Shown: positions 10,697 to 62,439 of the stretch, in pieces | How the letters are laid out: the number at the start of each line of letters is the position of its first letter | Position numbering within the stretch: position 1 is the first letter of the stretch | Source of the DNA: an uncultured Gammaproteobacteria bacterium | GTDB lineage: Bacteria > Patescibacteriota > Patescibacteriia > Buchananbacterales > UBA6539 | Assembly: GCA_964540635.1 (NCBI GenBank) | Contig: CAZINP010000002.1 | Location: forward strand, 20,963 to 84,962 | Reading direction: 5' to 3' | DNA length: 64,000 bases | Translations under genes and position numbers: made by a program | Notes under the pieces: model-generated | The model's input: the letters and a program-made list of their open reading frames with translations, nothing else | What the model was told of the DNA's origin: nothing | Databases searched by the model: none

Positions 10697-10786
10697 TTTT
10701 TAACTTGACAATGAATTTTAAAGAGTTATAATGTATTTAGATGTAAATATAATTTTAACAACATAGCGCCTCGGGCGTTTTTATTT

Positions 10787-11985: not shown

Positions 11986-12108
11986 TTAGACGGAAAAAAA
12001 TTCCGATTTTCTAAAAAATAATCAACATAGCGTCGTGCTTATCAGTTAAGCAAGGCGCTATTTTTTATAGAAGGTTCTTTGACAATCCAACAAACAAGGA
12101 GATGAGAC

Positions 12109-15100
12109 ATGTTTAGAATTACGTTTTGTTGCTTTTTGTTCATGTGTTCGGCTTATTCAGAAAAGCCAATGCTCAAACTCCCGTTTTCAGCTGGTCAAAT
12201 TTGGTCAATCACTGTTGGTTACGGTGGTAGCGATTATCATCAAAATGATGATTTTTATGCGCTTGATTTCAATCTTCCTGGAGATTCTGATCTGGGACAG
12301 CCAATCTTGGCAGCGGCATCGGGAGAAATTTTCTACGCTGGTTGGATGAATGGCTACGGTTGGACCGTGATCATTGATCATGGCTATGGTTACAAAACCA
12401 GATATGCGCATTTGAATTTAGCGCCTACCGTATCCGGTAGAATTTTACAGGGTCAAGAGATTGGAAAATGTGGTTCGTCGGGTGGGACAAGTACCGGTCC
12501 ACATCTTCATTTTGTGATGTATTTTAATGGTGGTCCTGAAATCCCAGAGCCAATGTCGGGTTATGCAAATTTTCAGGTTGGTGGTCGATATGTTTCTGAT
12601 AACTTTTTTTATAGTCAGGAGTTAGTTATCGGCTACCATCCAGATGGCTCTATCTCTCAGCCAATCCTTGACTACTACAGTCGTCCGGAACAAAACCTTG
12701 GTCAGCCGTTTGATAACGGCGGTGGACTTTACGTTCATGACTGGTCAAGCCAAGACGGCACGACCAAAATTACGCTTCAGGATTTTTGCTTAGGCAGTCC
12801 TGGGGTTGGCACACATTGCGCCATTGTTGAGTCCGTTGATGGAAACGCATACTCGCTGAAAGGTGCTTTTCGCTGGTACTACATGCAAAAAACCTACGAC
12901 GGCATGCCTTTTGATGCCGTTAAACTGCTTGGACCGCCAATTAACGATGGCGGAGCCACAGTTTACTATCCGATTTTGCCTGACGGAACCTTTGATTGTG
13001 TTGCCGGAAAGACCAGATGCTATGTCACCCAGAGCTTTGCCAATGGGTATGACTTTGTCTGGGACGGTAGCAAGGTTTGGTTGGTTCAAAATGTTTGCGG
13101 CCTGAATAAGGCGTTGAAATCGGTGGATTTTGACTGTAATGGTCAGCCTTACGAATTTCAGATTGCCGGCAGTTTGCCGGCAGAACCGGGATGCATTACG
13201 CTTCACGGTGCGGCCAATTGCTCTACCGGCGTTTATTTGGAGTGGTCAGATACTTTGTATCAAAGCCAGTTCTATCGTTTGTGGTCAAACGGCCAGCTGA
13301 GGGCAAATGTCGGGGCCAGGGGATACAGTGATTATCCGCTTTGGCCTTCAACAACCTATCGCTATCAGGTGGAAGCAATAACTTTTTCGGGGATGTCGCT
13401 GGGTTTCAGCAATGAAATCGTGGTGACCACACCGGAAAGTGAGCAGGAACCCGGTGGCGATTTGGGCGAGCCCTTTCCAGCGCGAATTGAGGCAACTTTG
13501 TCCGAATGCCTTTGGGTGTGGGGACAAACCTCTTCGCAAAACGGGATTTATTTGACGGCTCAAGTTTTTGACCAATACGGTCAACTGATGCCAAACGAAG
13601 AGGTGGTTTTTACCTCATCAAAGCCTTTGGTTTTTTGCGTCAATTTTGATTCCGGTTGGTGCAGTGCTGATGATGTTGGTCAAGCTGAAGTCTGGGCTCA
13701 GCACCGCGATTGGAGCGGCATTCGCTCGCAGAGAATCGCGGTCACTGTGGTCAACCAACTTCCGCCCGAGCCGATTGAACCGGATGTTTATGAATCATCA
13801 GGCTTGAAGCTTGAAAACTTCAACCTTTTGAGCCAAGGGCCGTTTGTAGAGTATTGTGGGTTGTTTTATTCGGTTCTGATTAGCAACCCGACCGATCAGC
13901 CCATTACTTTTTATGGGCCTCAGCTTTACCATTTTGACTTGAACGGCAAAACGGTTGGGGATTCGCCCTACAGCATTATTCCCACCACATTGCAGCCGGG
14001 TCAGTCGCAAGGTTTTGCTGACAGCGGCGGTCAAATTGGAGCGGCCGGAGAGTATTACTTGATGGCTATGGTCAACTTTGATGGACAATATGCTTCGCCG
14101 CGATATGTGATTGACGATTGTGCGGCTGGCATCAGCAGTAAGATTTACGTCAAATCTGTTTCTCAGGACGATTTAAAGGCAGACCTACAGGCCTTTGATC
14201 TCTACCTGGATAACTCTGCTCCATCAACCAATGATTTGATTGGCCTTAACGCTCGAGTTTTTAACTTCGGGCGAAAAAAAGTTGACGCGTCCTTTTCGGT
14301 CAGTATTGAGATTCGTGGAATCGGCAGTCAGTTCTGTGAAGTCGCCGGACTTGAGCCAAACAGCTATGAGTCCTGCAATATGTTCTTTGGCCCTTTGCCG
14401 GCAGGAGCATATACGGCCGATCTGATTGTTGATTCGCAAAACTCCATTCTGGAGGAAAACGAAGGCAATAATGTGGCACATTTGCCTTTTACGGTTTCGT
14501 CAATGAATCTGCCGCCGGTTATTATTACCGATTTGGCAGATAAAACAGTGGCGCAAGGCTCCAAGGTGATTTTTGAGGTTTTAGCCACGATTGCCGATCC
14601 GCCGAATGATCAAACTGATTTGCCAATAAGCTATCAGTGGCAGCATAACGGGCAGGAGGTGATTGCCAACAATTCTTCCCAGTTAATTCTGGAAAATGTC
14701 GGTTTTGACCAGGCAGGAAGCTATGCCTGCGTGGTTACAACCGCCAATGGTTTTGCTGCATCTAGCCGCACGGCCATTCTCACGGTTTTGCCAAAATTGA
14801 AAATCACCTCTCAGCCACAAGTTCTCACCTTGTTTCAGGGTCAAGCTCTTGAGAATTGTTTGCAGGCGGTTGGTGCTGGAACCTTGTCGTACCAGTGGTA
14901 CAAAGATGGCAAGATCATCTCCGGACAGAATCAACCTTGCTTGAAAATCGCATCGGTTCTTACTTCCGACTCCGGGTTCTATCATTGTCGGGTGACTGAT
15001 GTGGCTGCTGGTTTAACGCAGCGACTAAACACAAAAGTTGTTCAGTTGTCGGTGCGTCAAGTTGGTTCTGGTGCGCCGGCCGTTTATCTGGAGTATGTGG

Positions 15101-16302
15101 ACGGTGAGAGTGTCATCACGGGACGTCTTCAGGCAAATCAATGGGCATTGGGCGGGCTTCTTTTGAATCCCTACTCTTTGCCGGCCAAAAAGACGTATGC
15201 TGATGTCCAAAATCTGGGCTTACGATTTACGCAGAGTAAGGAGCCCAAGGTTTGTCTTGATGACGGAGAGCAAATTTTGCTTGATGAAAACGGCAATTCG
15301 CTTAAAGACAATCTTTACGACGGAATTGGTTTTGACGCCACGCGCAGTTTTGAGGTCAACCTTTTCGTTGGCAGGACATTGTACTGCAGGCTAAGGCCCT
15401 ATCTGATCATTTCCGGCAAGGTTTATTACCTTAATCTGGAGGTGGTCAAGATTTATTTGAACGGGAACGAACTTGCTGTTTCAAACGGCCAAGCCTTACT
15501 CTATTTGGCCACCGTCAACCCGCAGTTGCAGATAACACTGCAACCAATTGATCGAACCGTTAAAACTGGCGCCAATTTGTATTTCAAGGTCGCTGCCGTC
15601 GGCGATCCGGTGATTACCTACGCCTGGTTTAAGGACGGTCAGGCTGTGCCCAGCGGAAATAAGGCAATTTTGCGTCTATTGGGCGTGTGTTTGGATGCAG
15701 CAGGCGAGTACTCGTGTTTGGTCAAGACTTCGGCCGGAAAAGAAGTTTGGTCATTGCCGGCCAGGTTGACTGTTTACCAGAAGTTGCAGATCCTAAGTCA
15801 GCCCGTTTCCGTTGCGCTTAGGGAAGGTGATTCTGGCTTTTTTGAAGTTGAGGCAATTGGGCAAGGAGAGCTTTTCTATCAATGGAGAAAAGACGGGAAA
15901 AAAATTCTTGGCGCAAATCAGTCTTGTCTTGAGTTTGAGTCTGTGGCAAAATCTCAGATTGGCAGCTATACCTGTTTAGTTTCAGACAGTTGTCCAGGAA
16001 CGGCTCAGCGGTTGCTGAGTCAAGCGGCTGATTTGTCAATTTTGCCTGAAATGCAAGTTGTGGTTTGCGTCGAAAAGATTGATTCGGAGTTTATTGAGTG
16101 CCAGCCATCGGCTCGCGCCAACCCGGGTCAGACCGTTCATTTTTCTTGCCAGGTGCAAAACGGCATCGCGCCATTTTCCTATCAATGGTTTTTCAATGGC
16201 GATGTATTGCCGGGTGAGATTGGATCAACTTTGGTCAAAACCGAGGTTTCAAACGACGAAGAGGGCGCTTATAATTGCCAAGTGACTGATTCGTCTGGTT
16301 GA
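12109..16302 (+). CDS. giant secreted multidomain protein: N-terminal M23 (LytM-type) metallopeptidase, two CARDB-like domains, about five Ig-like (I-set-like) domains
   Basis: M23 motifs 'HQNDDFYALDF' (HxxxD) and 'GPHLHFV' (HxH). CARDB-like 'ENEGNNVAH'. Repeated Ig hallmarks 'YQW(Y/F/R)KDG' plus 'YxC' ('SYACVV', 'FYHCRV', 'EYSCLV', 'SYTCLV', 'AYNCQV'). Strong SD 'AAGGAG' 8 nt upstream. GC is visibly higher than in the neighbouring genes. Confidence 0.75.
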   Translation: MFRITFCCFLFMCSAYSEKPMLKLPFSAGQIWSITVGYGGSDYHQNDDFYALDFNLPGDSDLGQPILAAASGEIFYAGWMNGYGWTVIIDHGYGYKTRYAHLNLAPTVSGRILQGQEIGKCGSSGGTSTGPHLHFVMYFNGGPEIPEPMSGYANFQVGGRYVSDNFFYSQELVIGYHPDGSISQPILDYYSRPEQNLGQPFDNGGGLYVHDWSSQDGTTKITLQDFCLGSPGVGTHCAIVESVDGNAYSLKGAFRWYYMQKTYDGMPFDAVKLLGPPINDGGATVYYPILPDGTFDCVAGKTRCYVTQSFANGYDFVWDGSKVWLVQNVCGLNKALKSVDFDCNGQPYEFQIAGSLPAEPGCITLHGAANCSTGVYLEWSDTLYQSQFYRLWSNGQLRANVGARGYSDYPLWPSTTYRYQVEAITFSGMSLGFSNEIVVTTPESEQEPGGDLGEPFPARIEATLSECLWVWGQTSSQNGIYLTAQVFDQYGQLMPNEEVVFTSSKPLVFCVNFDSGWCSADDVGQAEVWAQHRDWSGIRSQRIAVTVVNQLPPEPIEPDVYESSGLKLENFNLLSQGPFVEYCGLFYSVLISNPTDQPITFYGPQLYHFDLNGKTVGDSPYSIIPTTLQPGQSQGFADSGGQIGAAGEYYLMAMVNFDGQYASPRYVIDDCAAGISSKIYVKSVSQDDLKADLQAFDLYLDNSAPSTNDLIGLNARVFNFGRKKVDASFSVSIEIRGIGSQFCEVAGLEPNSYESCNMFFGPLPAGAYTADLIVDSQNSILEENEGNNVAHLPFTVSSMNLPPVIITDLADKTVAQGSKVIFEVLATIADPPNDQTDLPISYQWQHNGQEVIANNSSQLILENVGFDQAGSYACVVTTANGFAASSRTAILTVLPKLKITSQPQVLTLFQGQALENCLQAVGAGTLSYQWYKDGKIISGQNQPCLKIASVLTSDSGFYHCRVTDVAAGLTQRLNTKVVQLSVRQVGSGAPAVYLEYVDGESVITGRLQANQWALGGLLLNPYSLPAKKTYADVQNLGLRFTQSKEPKVCLDDGEQILLDENGNSLKDNLYDGIGFDATRSFEVNLFVGRTLYCRLRPYLIISGKVYYLNLEVVKIYLNGNELAVSNGQALLYLATVNPQLQITLQPIDRTVKTGANLYFKVAAVGDPVITYAWFKDGQAVPSGNKAILRLLGVCLDAAGEYSCLVKTSAGKEVWSLPARLTVYQKLQILSQPVSVALREGDSGFFEVEAIGQGELFYQWRKDGKKILGANQSCLEFESVAKSQIGSYTCLVSDSCPGTAQRLLSQAADLSILPEMQVVVCVEKIDSEFIECQPSARANPGQTVHFSCQVQNGIAPFSYQWFFNGDVLPGEIGSTLVKTEVSNDEEGAYNCQVTDSSG

Positions 16303-16645: not shown

Positions 16646-16672
16646 AAATATCTCAAAGAGATATTCTTTTTT
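16646..16672. terminator. bidirectional intrinsic terminator at the 3' end of rnpB
   Basis: AATATCTCaaaGAGATATT with an A-run on one side and a T-run on the other. Confidence 0.55.
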
Positions 16673-17049
16673 GTCCAAGTAAACTAGTAAGCCGAATTCT
16701 GTTTTTTGGTTTGCACCAAAATGATGATCATCTATCTGGGATCAATGTTGCCATTGACCTCAAGCTGCCTACCTAATTTGGCATTGCACCTGGCAGGGGT
16801 TTACCACGCAGACCGTCACCGGTCATTCGCGCGTGAGCTCTTACCTCACGTTTTCAACCTTACCGTTCTCGCAAGCGAGACTTAGGCGGTATGTTTTCTG
16901 TTGCACTTGCCCTAAGCTTGGCAAAAATTCAGAAGTCTTAAGAACTTCTGGCTTTTTGTTACTCTCGGTTCCCGTTAGGAACTGCCTTTTTGTGGTGTTC
17001 GGACTTTCCTCTCCGACGAGTCGGAGCGATCATCTTGTTTACTTGGACA
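16671..17049 (-). ncRNA. rnpB: RNase P RNA, bacterial type A
   Basis: The reverse complement contains P4 strands 'GAGGAAAGTCCGAAC' (5') and 'ACAGAATTCGGCTTAC' (3'). It has a 'GGTAAGAGCTCAC...GTGGTAAACCCC' block (E. coli: GGTAAGAGCGCACC...GGTAAACTCC). P1 pairing is TGTCCAAGTAAAC / GTTTACTTGGACA. Length is ~379 nt. Confidence 0.85.
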
Positions 17050-47043: not shown

Positions 47044-47604
47044 ATGGCAGAAGACGGTCTAGATAAATTAATGTATTCATTCGTCGTCGAAGACGTTTTG
47101 AAGGGTTTTTTTATTCACGTCCCACCCGGATATGTTGCCTGTGTTTATGATTTGGGTCGAGGCGTATTAAAAAAGATTTACAAACCAGGGCTGCATTTGA
47201 AAATTCCTTTTTGGCAAAGAGCCACGTTATTTAACACCCAAACACTGGAATATGATATCGGGAAAAGATACAACCAAGATAGACCGGAATTGCTTGGCGA
47301 TTCTCCTATCACGGCCACAAGTGCTGATGGCAAAAAAATCAGTATTGAGGGCACTATTTTAATGAGACTTGATCAAGAACAAATTCCTGAAATTTGGCAA
47401 AGTATCGGTCAGAATTTTGTTGAAAAAATTATTCGTCCTACCATCCAAAGCCGAATGAGAATGATTGCCGCAAAATATACTTTAAATGAAATGGGGACCA
47501 GCAAACGCGCGGAAGTAGAAATTGATGCCAGACAAGAACTTGAAAGGATCTTGTACCCAAGAGGTATTTTTGTTGAAAACGTTTTGCTGAAAGAAATATA
47601 CTAA
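47044..47604 (+). CDS. SPFH/band-7 domain protein
   Basis: 'KIYKPGLHLKIPFWQRATLFNTQTLEYDI...' and 'IRPTIQSRMRMIAAKYTLNEM', typical of the stomatin/prohibitin fold. Confidence 0.55.
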   Translation: MAEDGLDKLMYSFVVEDVLKGFFIHVPPGYVACVYDLGRGVLKKIYKPGLHLKIPFWQRATLFNTQTLEYDIGKRYNQDRPELLGDSPITATSADGKKISIEGTILMRLDQEQIPEIWQSIGQNFVEKIIRPTIQSRMRMIAAKYTLNEMGTSKRAEVEIDARQELERILYPRGIFVENVLLKEIY

Positions 47605-48252: not shown

Positions 48253-49944
48253 ATGTTTGCAAAAAAAAATAAGATTCAAATTGCGTTAATCACAATAATA
48301 ATAATGGCGGTTTTGGCCATTATGATTGATTTTCCGCAACAATTACAAAAGTCGGGATTTCCCATTCCGTCGTTTTTGAATTTGCCTTATAGATTAGGGC
48401 TTGATTTACAGGGTGGAACACAGCTTATTTATACAGCTGATGTTTCAAATATTGCCACCGGAGACCAAGAAAGTGCGGTCGAAGGTGTTAGAGATGTTAT
48501 TGAACGCCGAGTTAATGCTTTTGGTGTAGCCGAACCATTGGTTCAAACTTCTAAAGTTGAAGATTCTTATCGAATTATAGTTGAATTGGCTGGCGTTTCC
48601 GATATCAATCAGGCAATAAAAATGATTGGCGAAACACCTCTTTTGGAATTCAAAGAATTAAACCCGGTTCAAGCAGTCAGCATTACAGAGGATCAAAAAA
48701 AGGAAATGGATGCCTATAATTCAGAAGCTCTTAAGAAAGCTCAAAGTACTCTAGCTGAAGCCTTAAAGCTTGGTTCTAATTTTAGCGATCTTGCCAAAAA
48801 ATACAGCGAGGATTCCGGCTCAAAAGACAACGGTGGTGATTTAGGCTTTGTAAAAAGAGGGGTTATGGTTTCAGAGTTTGAAAAGGCATGTTTTGATGAT
48901 CTTAATGATGGTGAAATCGATAAAAATTTAGTTAAAACTGAATACGGCTATCACATTATTAAACGCGTGGCTCATAAGGGAGAAGGGGATAATTTGGAAG
49001 TACAGTGCAGTCATATATTATTTTTGACAAAGTCGGAGGTTGATTTTGGCACGGTTCCTGATCAGTGGCTTTTAACCGGATTAAGCGGGAAACAATTAAC
49101 CAAGGCTCAGGTTACCTTTGATTCCAACACTCAGATGCCAATGATTAGTTTAGAGTTTAACAGTGAAGGCAAGGATTTATTTTCCGAAATAACTACAAGA
49201 AACATTGGAAAGCCGGTTGCGATTTTCTTAGACGGCGAACCGATAAGCACTCCAACCGTCCAAGAGGCGATTAAGGATGGTAAAGCGGTTATCAATGGTA
49301 AATTCACAATTCCAGAAGCAAAATTGTTGGCCCAAAGGCTTAATGCCGGTGCCTTACCCGTTCCAATCAACATGATTTCACAAAAAACAGTCGGGGCGAG
49401 CCTTGGAAGTGAATCCGTTAATCAAAGCGTAAAAGCTGGTATTTTAAGCTTGATTTTAATCTGCTTGTTCATGATTTTATATTATCGCTTACCCGGCTTA
49501 GTTTCTTCAATTGCTTTACTATTCTATGCCGTCGTGGTTGTTGCCGTTTTTAAGATTTTAAACGTTACCCTTACCTTATCCGGAATTGCCGGCTTTGTCC
49601 TGTCGTTAGGTATGGCTGTTGATGCCAATATTCTTATTTTTGAGCGCTTAAAAGAAGAAATTAGATGGGGTAAACCATTTTCCATGGCAATTGAAGAAGG
49701 ATTTAAGCGTGCCTGGTCTTCAATTTTAGACGGCCACGTTGCTACACTTATATCTTGTGGTATCTTAATTTGGTTTTCCACCAGCATGATTAAAGGCTTT
49801 GCCATAACTTTAGCAATCGGCACAATCATGAGTTTATTTTCGGCCATTGTTGTTACCCGCATCATCATCAAAGCATTAACCAAAATCAATAGCCTTAATA
49901 AAAACTGGCTTTACGGCGTTAGCAAAAAATCAATCAACAAATAA
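48253..49944 (+). CDS. secD: protein translocase subunit SecD with an inserted parvulin (PpiC) domain in the periplasmic loop
   Basis: N-terminal TM; P1 domain interrupted by 'LAKKYSEDSGSKDNGGDLGFVKRGVMVSEFEKACFDDLNDGEI...YGYHIIKR' (PpiC signature); C-terminal six-TM SecD core 'LGMAVDANILIFERLKEE'. Confidence 0.75.
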   Translation: MFAKKNKIQIALITIIIMAVLAIMIDFPQQLQKSGFPIPSFLNLPYRLGLDLQGGTQLIYTADVSNIATGDQESAVEGVRDVIERRVNAFGVAEPLVQTSKVEDSYRIIVELAGVSDINQAIKMIGETPLLEFKELNPVQAVSITEDQKKEMDAYNSEALKKAQSTLAEALKLGSNFSDLAKKYSEDSGSKDNGGDLGFVKRGVMVSEFEKACFDDLNDGEIDKNLVKTEYGYHIIKRVAHKGEGDNLEVQCSHILFLTKSEVDFGTVPDQWLLTGLSGKQLTKAQVTFDSNTQMPMISLEFNSEGKDLFSEITTRNIGKPVAIFLDGEPISTPTVQEAIKDGKAVINGKFTIPEAKLLAQRLNAGALPVPINMISQKTVGASLGSESVNQSVKAGILSLILICLFMILYYRLPGLVSSIALLFYAVVVVAVFKILNVTLTLSGIAGFVLSLGMAVDANILIFERLKEEIRWGKPFSMAIEEGFKRAWSSILDGHVATLISCGILIWFSTSMIKGFAITLAIGTIMSLFSAIVVTRIIIKALTKINSLNKNWLYGVSKKSINK

Positions 49945-51041: not shown

Positions 51042-52208
51042 ATGGAAAATAACAACTCAATATTGGATAAAATCATTGAAAGTCAAGAAAAAAGACAAGC
51101 ATCTCAATTTAATCCAAACGACCTCGTCTCTTTACTTTTAAAAAATCTTTCTTCTAAAGAAAGCGACATTTTAAGTCGCCGTTTTGGTATTTTGGGTAAA
51201 AAAAGAGAAACACTTGAAGAGATTGGTAAATATTATGAAATTACCAGAGAAAGAATTAGGCAGATTGAAATGTCTACCATTAAGAAACTCAAAGATTTAA
51301 AGAGTTTTAGACAAAATATTGAAGCGGCTGAACAACACATCACTCATTTACTTGAAAACCACGGCGGAATTATGGAAGAGGGTTTTTTGATGGAAGAAAT
51401 CGGTTATAACGATGAAACTCAAAATCAATCAATTAAATTCATCTTAAACCACCTTATTAACGATAAAGTTGAACCGATAAAAAGTGACTCGCATCTTTTG
51501 AGTGGTTGGAAATTGCCTGTTTTGCAGACAAATATTGTGAAAGACATGATAAATGAGTTAATGGAAATCATTAATCTTGAAAACAGGCTTTTAAAACTTG
51601 AGGAATTGCTTGGAAAAATGCGCGAGCGCGATTTTTATACGAACAACAAAGAACACTTTTTGGGTTTGAAACTTGGAACTGACGAAGAAAAACTTGAAAA
51701 TGAACTTGATAAAATAGTTCATTCATACTTAAGAGTTGCCAAAAATATTGATAAAAATATTCTTGGCGAATGGGGTTTAGCCAATTGGAATGCCGTTAAA
51801 CCCAAAAGAATGAGTGATAAGATTTACTTGGTTTTAAGAAAAGCCAATAAACCTTTACATTTTGTTGAAATTACCGATTTAATCAACCAATCAGAATTTG
51901 ATAAAAAAACCGCTTATCCGGCTACAATTCACAATGAATTAATCTTAGATGAAAGATTTGTTTTGGTCGGCCGCGGAATTTACGCCCTGAAAGAATGGGG
52001 TTATAAAAATGGCACAGTAATGGACATTATTGTTGATGTTTTAAAAAACTCTGATCAACCGATGACCAAAGATCAAATCACACAGGCTGTTTTAGACCAA
52101 AGAATTGTCAGAAAAAGCACAATTGACCTTGCTTTAACCAATAAAGCCAAAATCAAGAAAACCGCAGACGGCAAATATACTCTTGCCGAAGCCAAGATCG
52201 AGGCTTAA
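51042..52208 (+). CDS. hypothetical protein with sigma-70 region-4-like HTH
   Basis: 'SRRFGILGKKRETLEEIGKYYEITRERIRQIEMSTIKKLK' resembles sigma-70 r4; the remainder is unrecognised. A TTGACA-17-TATTCT promoter lies upstream (50922-50951). Confidence 0.4.
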   Translation: MENNNSILDKIIESQEKRQASQFNPNDLVSLLLKNLSSKESDILSRRFGILGKKRETLEEIGKYYEITRERIRQIEMSTIKKLKDLKSFRQNIEAAEQHITHLLENHGGIMEEGFLMEEIGYNDETQNQSIKFILNHLINDKVEPIKSDSHLLSGWKLPVLQTNIVKDMINELMEIINLENRLLKLEELLGKMRERDFYTNNKEHFLGLKLGTDEEKLENELDKIVHSYLRVAKNIDKNILGEWGLANWNAVKPKRMSDKIYLVLRKANKPLHFVEITDLINQSEFDKKTAYPATIHNELILDERFVLVGRGIYALKEWGYKNGTVMDIIVDVLKNSDQPMTKDQITQAVLDQRIVRKSTIDLALTNKAKIKKTADGKYTLAEAKIEA

Positions 52209-58373: not shown

Positions 58374-60989
58374 ATGCTAAATCCACAAAAATTAACAATA
58401 AAAGCTCAGGAAGCATTGCAAATTGCCCTGGAATTGGCCATGGAAAGAAATCAGCAGCAAATTTCCGTGGCGCATTTATTATTGGCTCTGATCGAGCAAG
58501 AAGATGGCGTTGTTTTACCCATTTTTAAAAAGCTGGAAGTTGACCTTGTCAAATTAAGAAATCAACTTCAAAAAATAATTGGCAATATACCGGAAGGTTC
58601 GACTAATGGCAGTATTCAGCCTTTTATGGAAGCATCATTACAAAAAAGTTTTATTTCCGCTGAAAATCAAGCAAAAAATTTAGGCGATGAATATATCAGC
58701 ACCGAACATTTTCTTTTGGGTATACTCGAGGTTAAATCTGAGACTTCCGATTATTTAAAAGCAATCAACATTGACTATCAAGAGGTTTTAAAAGTTTTGA
58801 AAGAAATCAGAGGAACTCACCGGGTTATTGATCAAGATCCCGAAAGCCAATATCAGGCCCTGAAAAAATACGGGATTAATTTAACCGATCAAGCCCGAGC
58901 CGGCAAATTGGATCCGATAATCGGCCGCGATCAAGAGATAAGACGGGTGATGCAAGTTTTGTCGCGCAAAACCAAAAACAATCCGGTTCTTATTGGTGAA
59001 CCAGGCACAGGTAAAACCGCCATCGTTGAAGGCTTAGCCCAAAGAATTGTGGCCGGTGATGTGCCTGAGAATATAAAAAGCAAGGAGGTTATCACTCTTG
59101 ATATCGGCAGCTTAGTGGCCGGCAGTAAGTTCAGAGGTGAATTTGAAAATCGCTTAAAAGCCGTTCTTAAAGAAGTTGAGGCTTCAGCCGGCAAAATTAT
59201 AATTTTTATTGACGAATTACACTTGGTGGTAGGCGCCGGCGGTTCCGAAGGAGCGGTTGATGCGGCCAATATGCTTAAACCCGCTTTGGCTCGCGGCACA
59301 CTTCATGCCATTGGCGCTACAACAATCAAAGAATATCAAAAATATATTGAAAAAGATGCGGCCCTGGAAAGACGCTTTCAGCCGGTTTTGGTCGGAGAAC
59401 CGACAATTGAAGATACAATTGCAATTCTTCGGGGCATTAAAGAAAAATATGAGGTTCATCACGGCGTTAAAATTACCGACAACGCTTTAGTGGCTGCCGC
59501 CAATTTATCAACCAGATATATTTCTGACAGATTTCTACCGGATAAAGCCATTGATTTAATTGATGAAGCGACTTCGGCGCTAAGAATGGAAATTGACTCG
59601 ATGCCGGACGAATTGGATACTTTAAAAAGAAAGATCATCCAGCTCGAAATTGAGAAACAAGCTCTTAAAAAAGAAAATAACGATCAAAGCAAAAAACGTC
59701 TTAGAGATCTGGAAAAAGAAATGGCCAATCTCAGGGAAAAGAGCAACCAAATAGAAATTCATTGGCAAAACGAAAAGAACCTGATTAAAAAAATTCAGGA
59801 GAACAAAAATCTTATTGACCAATTAAAAAATGAAGCTGAAATTGCCGAACGAAAAGGGGAGCTGGAACGTGTGGCAGAAATTAAATACGGAAAAATACCG
59901 AGCTTGGAAAAAGAGATTAAAAAACTCTACAACTCTTTGACCGAAATTCAAAGAGACAAAAAGATGCTTAAGGAAGAAGTCACGGCCGAAGATATTGCCG
60001 CGGTGGTTTCTCGCTGGACAGGCATTCCCGTTTCAAAAATGCTTGAAAGCGAAAGCCATAAATTGTTGAATTTGGAAGAAGAATTAAAACAACGCATTAT
60101 CGGACAAGACAAAGCGATTTCAGCCATTGCCAACGCCGTCAGACGTTCTCGGGCCGGAATTTCGGAAGAAAACAGGCCAATTGGCACATTTATGTTCCTT
60201 GGCCCAACCGGTGTGGGTAAAACCGAAACCGCCAAAGCCTTAGCGGAATTTATGTTCAACGACGACAAATCGCTTGTAAGAGTTGATATGTCTGAATATA
60301 TGGAAAAATACAGCGTAAGTAAAATCATCGGCTCACCTCCCGGATATGTCGGTTATGAAGAAGGTGGTCAACTTACCGAAATTATCAGACGCCGTCCCTA
60401 TGCGGTAATCTTGTTTGATGAAATTGAAAAAGCCCACCCTGACGTTTTTAACATTTTACTTCAAATTCTAGACGAAGGAAGATTAACAGATGCCAAAGGC
60501 AGGGTTGTTAATTTCAAAAATACGATAATTATTTTGACCTCAAACCTTGGCAGCGATGTTATCAAAGAATTTTCATTGGGATTTACCGACAAGGAAAGAG
60601 ACGGCAAAATTGACCAAAAAGAAATGGAGGCTCAAATCACTGATATTTTACATCGCTCATTCAAACCGGAATTCCTAAACCGCTTAGATGAATTAATTAT
60701 CTTTTCTTCACTCAAGCAGTCCGAGATCAGAAAAATTGTTGATTTGCAACTCAAAAAGATATCAACCAGATTATTGGAAAAAGAAATTAAAATTGATGCC
60801 ACCTCAAAGCTAAAAGATTATTTGGCCAAAACCGGTTATGATCCGATTTATGGCGCCAGGCCAATTAAGCGATTGATTCAGGAAAAAATTCTTGACGAGC
60901 TGGCCATGAAAATTATTGAGGGTAAAGTCACCCGAGGACAAAAAATCAAAATTGACCTTGGACCCAAAGACGAAATTATCATCAAATAA
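58374..60989 (+). CDS. clpB: chaperone ClpB (Hsp100, with M-domain coiled coil)
   Basis: Clp_N repeats; NBD1 '[17 protein letters not shown]' / 'IIFIDELH'; long coiled-coil middle domain; NBD2 '[16 protein letters not shown]' / '[13 protein letters not shown]'. Confidence 0.9.
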
Positions 60990-60990
60990 A

Positions 60991-61018
60991 AAATAGTCCC
61001 GTAAAACGGGACTATTTT
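60991..61018. terminator. bidirectional intrinsic terminator between clpB and the acidic-protein gene
   Basis: AAATAGTCCCGtaaaaCGGGACTATTT. Confidence 0.65.
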
Positions 61019-61030
61019 TATGATATACAA

Positions 61031-61183
61031 TTACGACCGATTAAAATTCTTCTTCACCATCACCCTCTTCAGCCTCATCTTCGTCTTCATCAAAATCCAT
61101 GTCATCATCGTCTTCTGAATAATCATCGTCACCCATATCGTCGGCTGGGGTGGTTGTTAATTCTTCATCATCGTTAAAATACA
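61031..61183 (-). CDS. small hyper-acidic protein (50 aa, ~60% Asp/Glu), not in ORF track
   Basis: Minus-strand ATG at 61183 preceded by SD 'GAGGAG' 8 nt upstream. Translation is MYFNDDEELTTTPADDMGDDDYSEDDDDMDFDEDEDEAEEGDGEEEF*. A terminator follows. Confidence 0.5.
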
Positions 61184-61341
61184 TTATTTTAACTCCTCTT
61201 AAGTCTCGCTTGCGCGGACTTTATTTATTAATAAAACTATTCTAAATTATATCTAATCCAATAGGCGTGTCAAGTGGAAAAATATAGATAAAATTTTAGC
61301 TAAAATTTGCCACAGAACAAAACAGCAAGTATAATAAAAAT

Positions 61342-62439
61342 ATGAAAAATAATGAAAAAAAATCAAAGAAAAAAAGGGTTTGCATCGCTCTCTCCGGCGG
61401 TGTGGACTCTTCGGTTGCCGCCGCTTTAATAAAAAAGTCAGGTTTTGAATGTATTGGAATTTTTATGAAACTCTGGCACGATCCGCTTTCAAAATCTTGC
61501 CGCGAAAATCTTTGCTGCTCCTCAGAAGCCTTTGAAGATGCCAGAAAAGTGGCACATAAACTTGGTTTTGCCTTATATACTTTTGATTATTCAAAACAAT
61601 TCAAAAAAGAAATTGTTGATTATTTTTTAAAAGAACACCAAAAGGGGAATACGCCTAACCCGTGCGTTGCCTGCAATAAATTTATCAAATTTGACCTCTT
61701 GCTTAAAACCGCACTCAATTTAAACTGCGACTACTTGGCTACCGGGCACTATCTTAAAATTAAACAAGACAAATCATCAAAAAAATATAAAGTTTTTCAG
61801 GGCAAAGATAAAAATAAGGACCAATCATATTTTTTATACAATCTCAAACAAAAACAATTAAAAAACTTGCTCTTCCCCTTGGGTGATTTGGAAAAAAGTC
61901 AGGTTAGAAAAATTGCCAAAAAACTCGGCTTAAGTGTTTATCAAAAAAAAGAAAGCCAAGAAATTTGTTTTATTTCAGAAAAAGATCGTTATCCATTTTT
62001 TAAAAACTATCTAAAAGCAAAAGCTGGTGAGATTATTGACCAAAAAGGAATTAAAGTGGGGGAGCATCTTGGCTATTCTCTATATACTCCCGGGCAAAGA
62101 AAGGGGTTAAAAATCGGCTCCGGCAACGGACCGTATTATGTTAATAAAATTTCACCGAGACAAAATATTGTTTTTGTCACAAACGATTCGCAAGATAAAA
62201 ATCTTTTTACCAAAAACTTTAAAATTAAAAATATAAACTGGATATCGCAAGAACCAAATTCCAAAAAAGCCCTTAAAGTCAAAATAAGGCACCAATCAAA
62301 ATTACTTGAAGCAAAAATATCAGGCAACAAAGTAACCTTAAAAAAACCGGCCCGTTCCGTAGTGCCCGGCCAATCTGCAGTTTTTTATCACAAAAACGAG
62401 CTCCTTGGTGGCGGGATAATCAGTTCAATTAATAAATAA
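61342..62439 (+). CDS. mnmA: tRNA-specific 2-thiouridylase
   Basis: PP-loop 'CIALSGGVDSSVAAAL'; 'NPCVACNKFIKFD'. Confidence 0.85.
   Translation: MKNNEKKSKKKRVCIALSGGVDSSVAAALIKKSGFECIGIFMKLWHDPLSKSCRENLCCSSEAFEDARKVAHKLGFALYTFDYSKQFKKEIVDYFLKEHQKGNTPNPCVACNKFIKFDLLLKTALNLNCDYLATGHYLKIKQDKSSKKYKVFQGKDKNKDQSYFLYNLKQKQLKNLLFPLGDLEKSQVRKIAKKLGLSVYQKKESQEICFISEKDRYPFFKNYLKAKAGEIIDQKGIKVGEHLGYSLYTPGQRKGLKIGSGNGPYYVNKISPRQNIVFVTNDSQDKNLFTKNFKIKNINWISQEPNSKKALKVKIRHQSKLLEAKISGNKVTLKKPARSVVPGQSAVFYHKNELLGGGIISSINK

Follow-up and report, generated by a model that had tools for sequence, protein, structure and literature searches.

The window, by which we mean the whole 64 kb stretch of DNA analysed here, carries on its minus strand a short open reading frame whose product, MYFNDDEELTTTPADDMGDDDYSEDDDDMDFDEDEDEAEEGDGEEEF, is dominated by acidic residues. 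Asp and Glu account for 27 of the 47 residues (57%; 16 Asp and 11 Glu), Lys, Arg, Cys, His and Trp are absent, and the 5.5 kDa peptide has a net charge of -27. The window has 179 ATG-initiated ORFs of 36 aa or more, and the runner-up among them has a D+E fraction of 19%, making the acidic ORF an extreme outlier. An origin as a tandem-repeat or low-complexity DNA artefact was rejected, as the ORF is not built on a tandem DNA repeat. Nearly all other genes of the window are on the plus strand, and the acidic gene is a lone, self-contained cistron on the opposite strand; it is also a called gene in Logan contig SRR8925758_17212. A preliminary description of this DNA had quoted the same minus-strand peptide, which is encoded exactly as given, and its figure of around 60% Asp/Glu agrees with our count. 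The length of 50 aa and the span of 61031..61183 given there had to be revised to 47 aa and 61184..61041 including the TAA, which moves the start by 1 nt and the end by 10 nt. Positions 61031..61132 hold a separate GTG-initiated ORF in a different frame. The features of the locus are listed in Table 1.

Table 1 Features at the acidic gene, at its neighbours and in the leaders of orthologues
Feature	Position	Strand	Details
Acidic CDS	61041..61184	-	47 codons + TAA; from ORF/translation reading
Sigma-70 promoter TTGACA-16-TATAAT	61246..61273	-	12/12 consensus match
-35 box TTGACA of acidic gene	61273..61268	-	
-10 box TATAAT of acidic gene	61251..61246	-	
5' UTR of acidic gene	61185..61239	-	~55 nt, AU-rich, with stem-loop; TSS inferred ~7 nt past the -10 box
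5'-UTR stem-loop AAGUCCGC-GCAA-GCGAGACUU	61201..61221	-	ends 2-4 nt 5' of the Shine-Dalgarno, depending on which basal A-U pairs are counted
Shine-Dalgarno GAGGAG	61193..61198	-	8 nt 5' of the ATG
Intrinsic terminator hairpin	60989..61019	-	14 bp (5 G-C pairs) + T-run
mnmA	61342..62439	+	divergent; 11/12 promoter
CIRCE operator TTAGCACTC-N9-GAGTGCTAA	58338..58364	+	0 mismatches; between an 11/12 promoter (58305) and the clpB start
Near-identical leader in orthologue 5' UTRs	L090 3831-3887; L091 3730-3780; L093 3620-3669; L094 1335-1391		

The promoter of the acidic gene is one of only three in the 64 kb that match the sigma-70 consensus at all 12 positions. The remaining two are at 10705 (+) and 46947 (+), the latter inside the 3' end of a YidC-like ORF and just 5' of an SPFH/Band-7 gene (47044..47604). 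At 14 of the 15 loci of the acidic family (the window counted), a perfect TTGACA is accompanied by a -10 box that scores 5/6 or better, and all 15 members have a GGAG/GGAA motif 8-10 nt 5' of the ATG; in the window this is the GAGGAG that the preliminary description had already placed 8 nt upstream. The terminator hairpin starts on the final base of the clpB stop codon, 22 nt past the stop of the acidic ORF, and similar hairpins were found 3' of the orthologues wherever the downstream flank was read. As it is palindromic with A/T runs on both sides, the terminator is probably common to the convergent clpB. Of the terminator shared with clpB that was claimed earlier, the hairpin itself, which abuts the clpB stop, was confirmed, and its use in both directions by the acidic gene and clpB is plausible. 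We are highly confident that the acidic gene is monocistronic. Read from the sequence, its consensus promoter, strong Shine-Dalgarno, 5'-UTR stem-loop and strong terminator suggest that high expression is to be predicted.

The neighbouring MnmA assigns the window to Candidatus Buchananbacteria (Patescibacteria/CPR), its best match among genomes having 58% identity, and 14 syntenic orthologues of the acidic ORF were identified in contigs of Candidatus Buchananbacteria/Patescibacteria. All 14 examined relatives with an MnmA at least 53% identical have the acidic orthologue. Those at loci L002, L003, L059, L082-L086 and L090-L093 are on the minus strand, 160-290 bp upstream of mnmA, the one at L088 was added by a DNA-pattern scan of JGI metagenomes, and the one at L094 is split from mnmA by an inserted gene pair. 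This insert (L094 1657..3805), which encodes an ECF-type sigma factor and a DUF5667 protein, is the sole split of the divergent pair. At 77 more distant mnmA loci, no such acidic ORF was detected within 6 kb of mnmA, and none emerged when, at 30 of these 77 loci, the 3 kb upstream of mnmA were scanned with looser criteria based on charge. Within the searched range, the gene is very probably confined to a subclade of Candidatus Buchananbacteria. Several TPA metagenome-assembled genomes (MAGs) titled 'uncultured Gammaproteobacteria bacterium' (L003, L006, L009, L010, L014 and L017-L020) have an MnmA closest to the Patescibacteria query, and L003, the sole one viewed in detail, has the acidic gene and the gene order of the window; the 'Gammaproteobacteria' titles of these records look like taxonomic mislabels.

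The orthologues vary in the way expected of a protein. Between the window and L082, 25 codons are identical, 12 differ synonymously and 8 non-synonymously, with gaps that are all multiples of three, and synonymous changes outnumber non-synonymous ones in the conserved half. In the six closest members, the variable sites at the first, second and third codon positions number 1/0/9 in the first 11 codons and 7/7/17 over 21 codons. The coding frame is open in 15 of 15 family members, the other two frames contain 1-14 stops, and only in-frame indels were seen. The preliminary description had proposed that a lack of conservation in related genomes would speak against the gene; the 14 syntenic orthologues, in-frame indels and third-position variation showed the opposite. 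The acidic ORF is almost certainly a real protein-coding gene under purifying selection. Its shortness, the lack of a match to any protein-database family and the absence of the exact window peptide from a collection of 15 billion proteins could also be read as a chance ORF in a small RNA or a purine-rich spacer. The codon-position bias, the excess of synonymous changes, the frame kept open in every member, the conserved -35 box, a Shine-Dalgarno kept at fixed spacing and a composition ~3-fold above that of the next ORF all contradict this, and we reject such chance-ORF and RNA-only readings as almost certainly wrong.

The acidic gene is part of a conserved block consisting of UDP-glucose dehydrogenase, an amino-acid permease, (clpB), the acidic gene in reverse, mnmA, (a small ORF), alaS, infA and ribosomal proteins. 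In the window, the -35 boxes of mnmA and the acidic gene are 34 bp apart. The preliminary description had asked whether the gene is always beside clpB or mnmA, and mnmA is its neighbour at 14 of 15 loci, unlike clpB, which is the downstream neighbour at only 5 of 14 assessable loci (the window, L002, L059, L083 and L088, where the acidic gene is convergent with it). At the other nine, the acidic gene stays beside mnmA or in its place. Adjacency to mnmA is itself weak functional evidence, because the whole block is syntenic. A role as a sulfur-relay partner of MnmA was ruled out, as the acidic peptide has no Cys.

The clpB gene has a perfect CIRCE operator, the sole one in the 64 kb, which implies, as judged from the DNA, HrcA-type heat-shock control of clpB in this CPR bacterium. 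No CIRCE was found near the acidic gene, even with 3 mismatches allowed, so shared heat-shock regulation is unsupported. Together with the 5 of 14 adjacency, this leaves the earlier suggestion that the position next to clpB may be meaningful without support, and the link was rejected. It bears equally on a reading in which the acidic peptide is a ClpB-linked factor, that is, a co-chaperone, substrate mimic or regulator of the neighbouring disaggregase. Polyanions are able to modulate aggregation, and the two genes are convergent with a probably common terminator in the window, L002, L059, L083 and L088; however, clpB is elsewhere at nine of 14 assessable loci, where the acidic gene stays with mnmA, and the operator is restricted to clpB. 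We consider a ClpB-linked role highly improbable.

Several other features of the window were recorded. The plus-strand gene at 51042..52208 encodes a 388-aa protein with a Sigma70 region 4 (residues 32-84) and a HARE-HTH domain (residues 261-319), the latter being the domain of the RNAP delta subunit; the acidic tail of delta is lacking from this protein, and the notion of the free acidic peptide as a stand-in for that tail is pure speculation. The SecD-like protein encoded at 48253..49944 (+) is an unusual fusion, in which an inserted Rotamase domain (PPIC-type peptidyl-prolyl isomerase) separates the N-terminal P1 segment of SecD from the P1 head. The region 12001..16000 has a GC content of 0.47, compared with ~0.36 elsewhere, and coincides with a 1397-aa ORF (12109..16302, +); this may reflect either a highly conserved gene or DNA of foreign origin. 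A bacterial RNase P RNA of class A (220 bits) is encoded at 16672..17045 (-) in plus-strand surroundings.

Across the family, the acidic proteins are 36-54 aa long, with a net charge of -16 to -31, zero or one Lys/Arg and a D+E content of 34-60%, and the D:E ratio varies too. Only N-terminal positions are invariant in the family alignments, namely M1 and F3, and they belong to a conserved module of ~13 residues, M-[Y/I/F/H]-F-x-(D/E run)-[I/L/M/V]-T-T-(T), in which the [I/L/M/V]-T-T-(T) element falls around residues 9-13. The tail that follows diverges fast; it consists largely of D, E, G, A and M, has an occasional L, F or Y and, apart from scattered M/L/F/Y/G/A, keeps only an extreme negative charge and the lack of basic residues. 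The Asp runs are interspersed with Met, which is enriched (6.9%). The C-termini of the six members of the 'MYF' subclade are EEEF, EEEF, GEEI, GEEI, AEEY and EEEV, and the other nine members mostly end in Glu (...DAE, ...EVE, ...AAE), with one ending in ...ETV. With its short length and high charge, the peptide cannot fold by itself. A single-sequence AlphaFold2 prediction, which is weak evidence, gave a pLDDT of 61, a pTM of 0.13 and no secondary structure, and this model fits with an intrinsically disordered peptide.

A conserved N-terminus followed by a hypervariable C-terminus is also the layout of a RiPP precursor, with the N-terminus as its putative leader and the variable acidic part as its putative core, cross-linked for example by graspetide-like Thr-Asp/Glu esters. 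Residues of the kind used in such omega-ester links are present, as a TT(T) cluster precedes many D/E, though with no regular spacing and no Lys, and graspetide gene clusters occur in CPR bacteria (PMC8939145). Against this, the graspetide leader signature Phhx(1,2)h (PMC8939145) is missing from the family alignment by inspection. No ATP-grasp enzyme or other maturase, protease or exporter was detected in the 20 Pfam-scanned ORFs at 39990-63997, nor was any of these found in the orthologous neighbourhoods with listed called genes, and the neighbours are housekeeping genes. A RiPP precursor is exceedingly improbable.

The retention of charge in a tail whose sequence is not kept would likewise suit a macro-anion, that is, an abundant, non-diffusible polycarboxylate that binds or buffers Mg2+, Ca2+, K+ or other metals, or sets the ionic milieu of an ultra-small cell, with no specific protein as its target. 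A net charge of -16 to -31 on ~5 kDa with no basic residues and the expression signals of high-expression type agree with such a buffer, as does the Met content among the Asp runs. Met-rich motifs of other proteins bind soft metals. A pure counter-ion role leaves the invariant M-x-F and [ILMV]-T-T module unexplained, though, and the peptide has no His/Cys, no regular chelating motif and no consistently adjoining transporter or metal-homeostasis gene. We regard a macro-anion or cation buffer as unlikely.

The 5' UTR of the acidic gene is itself structured. A hairpin ending 0-7 nt 5' of the Shine-Dalgarno, which is left unpaired, was predicted in 15 of 15 family members, with folding z-scores of -2 to -6 against shuffles, and RNAalifold showed compensatory changes in all five consensus pairs of the stem. 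The stem is GUCCGC/GCG-GAC in the window, GUUCUGG/CCAGAAC in most others, AUUCUGG/CCAGAAU in L092 and an unrelated A/U-rich stem in L003. Since the loop varies from 4 to ~50 nt across the family, it is the helix and not the loop that seems to be conserved. A search of the locus against Rfam gave no family match to the hairpin, only sub-threshold noise, and no second copy that could point to a regulon was found in the window or the 94 loci, the orthologues aside. Most simply, the hairpin would serve as an mRNA stabiliser or a regulator-binding site. Loci L090, L091, L092, L093 and L094 have a near-identical leader in common, GATAACTAAT(T/A)ATTAA(A/G)(G/A)TTCTGGTTATCTT, in which the 5' arm of the main hairpin overlaps with another inverted repeat, GATAAC/GTTATC, that the leader of the window itself does not have. 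This repeat may function as a DNA operator close to the TSS or may form an alternative or pseudoknotted RNA fold.

A structured and conserved 5' UTR, together with D/E runs that begin at residue 4-5 and more than 3 D/E in each later stretch of 10 residues, brings to mind a translation-level sensor, in which the translation of poly-D/E, as in MgtL, reports Mg2+ or ribosome status and the peptide is secondary. In E. coli, N-proximal D/E-rich nascent chains destabilise ribosomes (IRD), especially at low Mg2+, and sequences of this type are under-represented in the first 20-30 codons of ORFs in bacteria (bioRxiv 10.1101/2021.02.02.429294); ABCF factors have also been linked to IRD in E. coli (PMC11162784). 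Stretches such as those of the acidic ORF are in the E. coli risk class, so IRD, predicted to be worse at low Mg2+, would be expected from the E. coli data for this N-proximal, D/E-rich (57%) sequence, a likeness to MgtL. The likeness ends with gene organisation: MgtL acts in cis as a leader that precedes mgtA on the strand of that gene, whereas the acidic ORF is monocistronic and terminated, with no same-strand gene downstream and a convergent gene after its strong terminator. A sensor role is unlikely because nothing beyond the terminator is there to attenuate. Moreover, the length of 36-54 codons and the acidic C-terminal half are kept, which an early-aborting sensor would not need. Bulky residues immediately preceding D/E runs counteract IRD (bioRxiv 10.1101/2021.02.02.429294), and the bulky residues 2-3 of the family look like an adaptation to complete translation. 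All in all, we rate a sensor as very unlikely. Since the invariant bulky pair (Y/I/F/H, F) directly precedes the acidic run, the same effect gives the N-terminus a further, not mutually exclusive, reason to be conserved.

Searches against known families returned little. No match to the acidic peptide was found in Pfam, NCBIfam, PHROGs or PADLOC, the sole Pfam line (LAP1_N, E=3.2) being noise, and a profile search of the PDB with the family gave 0 matches at E<=10; compositional bias filters lower the sensitivity of such profile and PDB searches for this peptide. A tblastn search of phage and plasmid collections yielded nothing, and the DNA pattern of MYF(x)DDEExTT had 0 occurrences in viral contigs and occurred in only three JGI metagenome contigs, two known already and L088. 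A word-indexed homologue search retrieved no candidates with the peptide and, with a 4-sequence profile, only the L059 orthologue, labelled 'hypothetical protein'. A profile-guided metagenome scan gave 600 pattern matches, 0 of which were confirmed by tblastn. An exhaustive phmmer search of 1.84 billion representatives gave 0 matches and missed the true orthologues too; its bias correction suppresses even these, which makes the null uninformative and the negative searches weak in this case. Two of the 10 family sequences looked up in the 15-billion-protein collection were present, both unnamed. As homology searches are nearly blind to such biased sequences, the narrow distribution and the lack of a known family are weaker statements than they appear.

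Our preferred reading, which we put forward tentatively on the grounds of composition and analogy and rate at somewhat under an even chance, is that the gene product is an abundant, disordered polyanion whose targets are basic surfaces that bind nucleic acids. The disordered peptide would act stoichiometrically as a free polyanion, its tail occupying such surfaces on one or more abundant proteins, for which HU-like nucleoid proteins, SSB, RNA polymerase, ribosomal proteins and the tRNA-binding MnmA are candidates. It would in this way be a nucleic-acid mimic, a competitor or an electrostatic holdase. The N-terminal hydrophobic/Thr module may be a short docking motif that confers specificity, with the bulky positions 2-3 perhaps conserved in part for translatability instead, and the 5'-UTR hairpin, which leaves the Shine-Dalgarno free, may act as an mRNA stabiliser or regulator site. 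The housekeeping genomic context, which gives no functional clue, counts against this mechanism, as does the fact that most known DNA mimics have a fold and display their charges in an ordered array.

Besides being conserved and probably highly expressed, the acidic ORF has the most extreme composition of any ORF in its part of the genome. As CPR genomes are tiny and streamlined, a retained gene with a consensus promoter likely matters to the cell. The annotation of MAGs systematically misses small proteins, and the few members of this family in the protein collection are an example. Having no Lys or Arg, the peptide is invisible to standard tryptic proteomics, so its absence from metaproteomes would be meaningless. 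How ribosomes deal with N-proximal poly-acidic sequences is a question for which the family provides a natural test case. Should the peptide indeed work as a mimic or chaperone in the form of a free polyanion, it would extend to the core physiology of an uncultivated bacterial lineage what is known in principle from phages and from eukaryotes.

The preliminary description had likened the peptide to Ocr and ArdA. These proteins (Ocr being from T7), together with DMP12/DMP19 of Neisseria and the phage proteins Ugi/Arn, are like the acidic peptide in being small and very acidic, and they occupy DNA-binding sites; DMP12, for example, is a small acidic DNA mimic that binds HU (PMC3643605). However, mimics of the Ocr/ArdA type have 80-170 residues, a defined fold and a DNA-like carboxylate geometry, whereas the acidic peptide has 47 residues, 57% D/E, no hydrophobic core and no predicted structure. 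Many of them are encoded by phages or plasmids, whereas the acidic gene is in a conserved chromosomal block of housekeeping context, where no phage, plasmid, viral or defence link was found. Membership of the Ocr/ArdA family was therefore rejected on profile, predicted fold and mobile-element context. As the D:E ratio and the acidity of the tail vary, precise mimicry of DNA geometry is disfavoured and a looser electrostatic role is favoured, and by analogy a looser polyanionic mimic or chaperone would be the most plausible mode of action.

In function, the peptide comes closest to disordered acidic segments that vie with nucleic acids for basic surfaces, with DMP12 on HU (PMC3643605) as one precedent and the disordered regulators of RNA polymerase as others. 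The acidic C-terminal tail of RNAP delta (RpoE) in Firmicutes and sigma-70 region 1.1 are acidic segments that compete with nucleic acid. In SutA of P. aeruginosa, an acidic disordered segment competes with nucleic acid on RNAP (bioRxiv 10.1101/423384), and Gp44 of SPO1 has a flexible ssDNA-mimic domain (PMC8208478). In these cases, as proposed here, a flexible acidic segment competes on a basic surface while an extra element anchors it. SutA (central helix) and delta (HARE-HTH) have a folded or helical anchor and basic residues, whereas the acidic peptide has only its 13-residue motif, and no homology to the disordered RNAP regulators was detected. Acidic tails with a hydrophobic end are a further comparison: the SSB tip (DDDIPF) and the acidic tails of T7 gp2.5 and gp4 end in Phe. 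The acidic run with a hydrophobic or aromatic end recurs in the six 'MYF' members, but the SSB, gp2.5 and gp4 tails belong to larger proteins, and a hydrophobic C-terminus is not kept in the nine other family members.

The eukaryotic proteins DSS1/Sem1, prothymosin-alpha and 'Hero' are hyper-acidic and disordered, and serve as ssDNA mimics, complex glue and anti-aggregation shields. Like them, the acidic peptide is free-standing, of heat-stable type and has scattered hydrophobic or aromatic anchor residues. They differ from it in domain of life, in length (70-110 aa or more) and in showing no sequence kinship, so the likeness is one of principle only. The extreme charge, lack of a predicted fold and free-standing, monocistronic organisation place the peptide with the Hero/prothymosin/DSS1-like proteins as a functional class, not by homology. 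Taking this analogy further, the peptide might be a bacterial counterpart of prothymosin-alpha/DSS1, an abundant, chromosomally encoded, CPR-specific housekeeping polyanion that, as a nucleic-acid mimic or electrostatic chaperone, would tune a core basic machine of ultra-small cells (nucleoid protein, SSB, RNAP, ribosomal proteins or MnmA) and whose MYF-type start would be an evolved anti-destabilisation solution, although we judge this fuller version somewhat unlikely. The acidic peptide represents a new sequence family within a known physical class.
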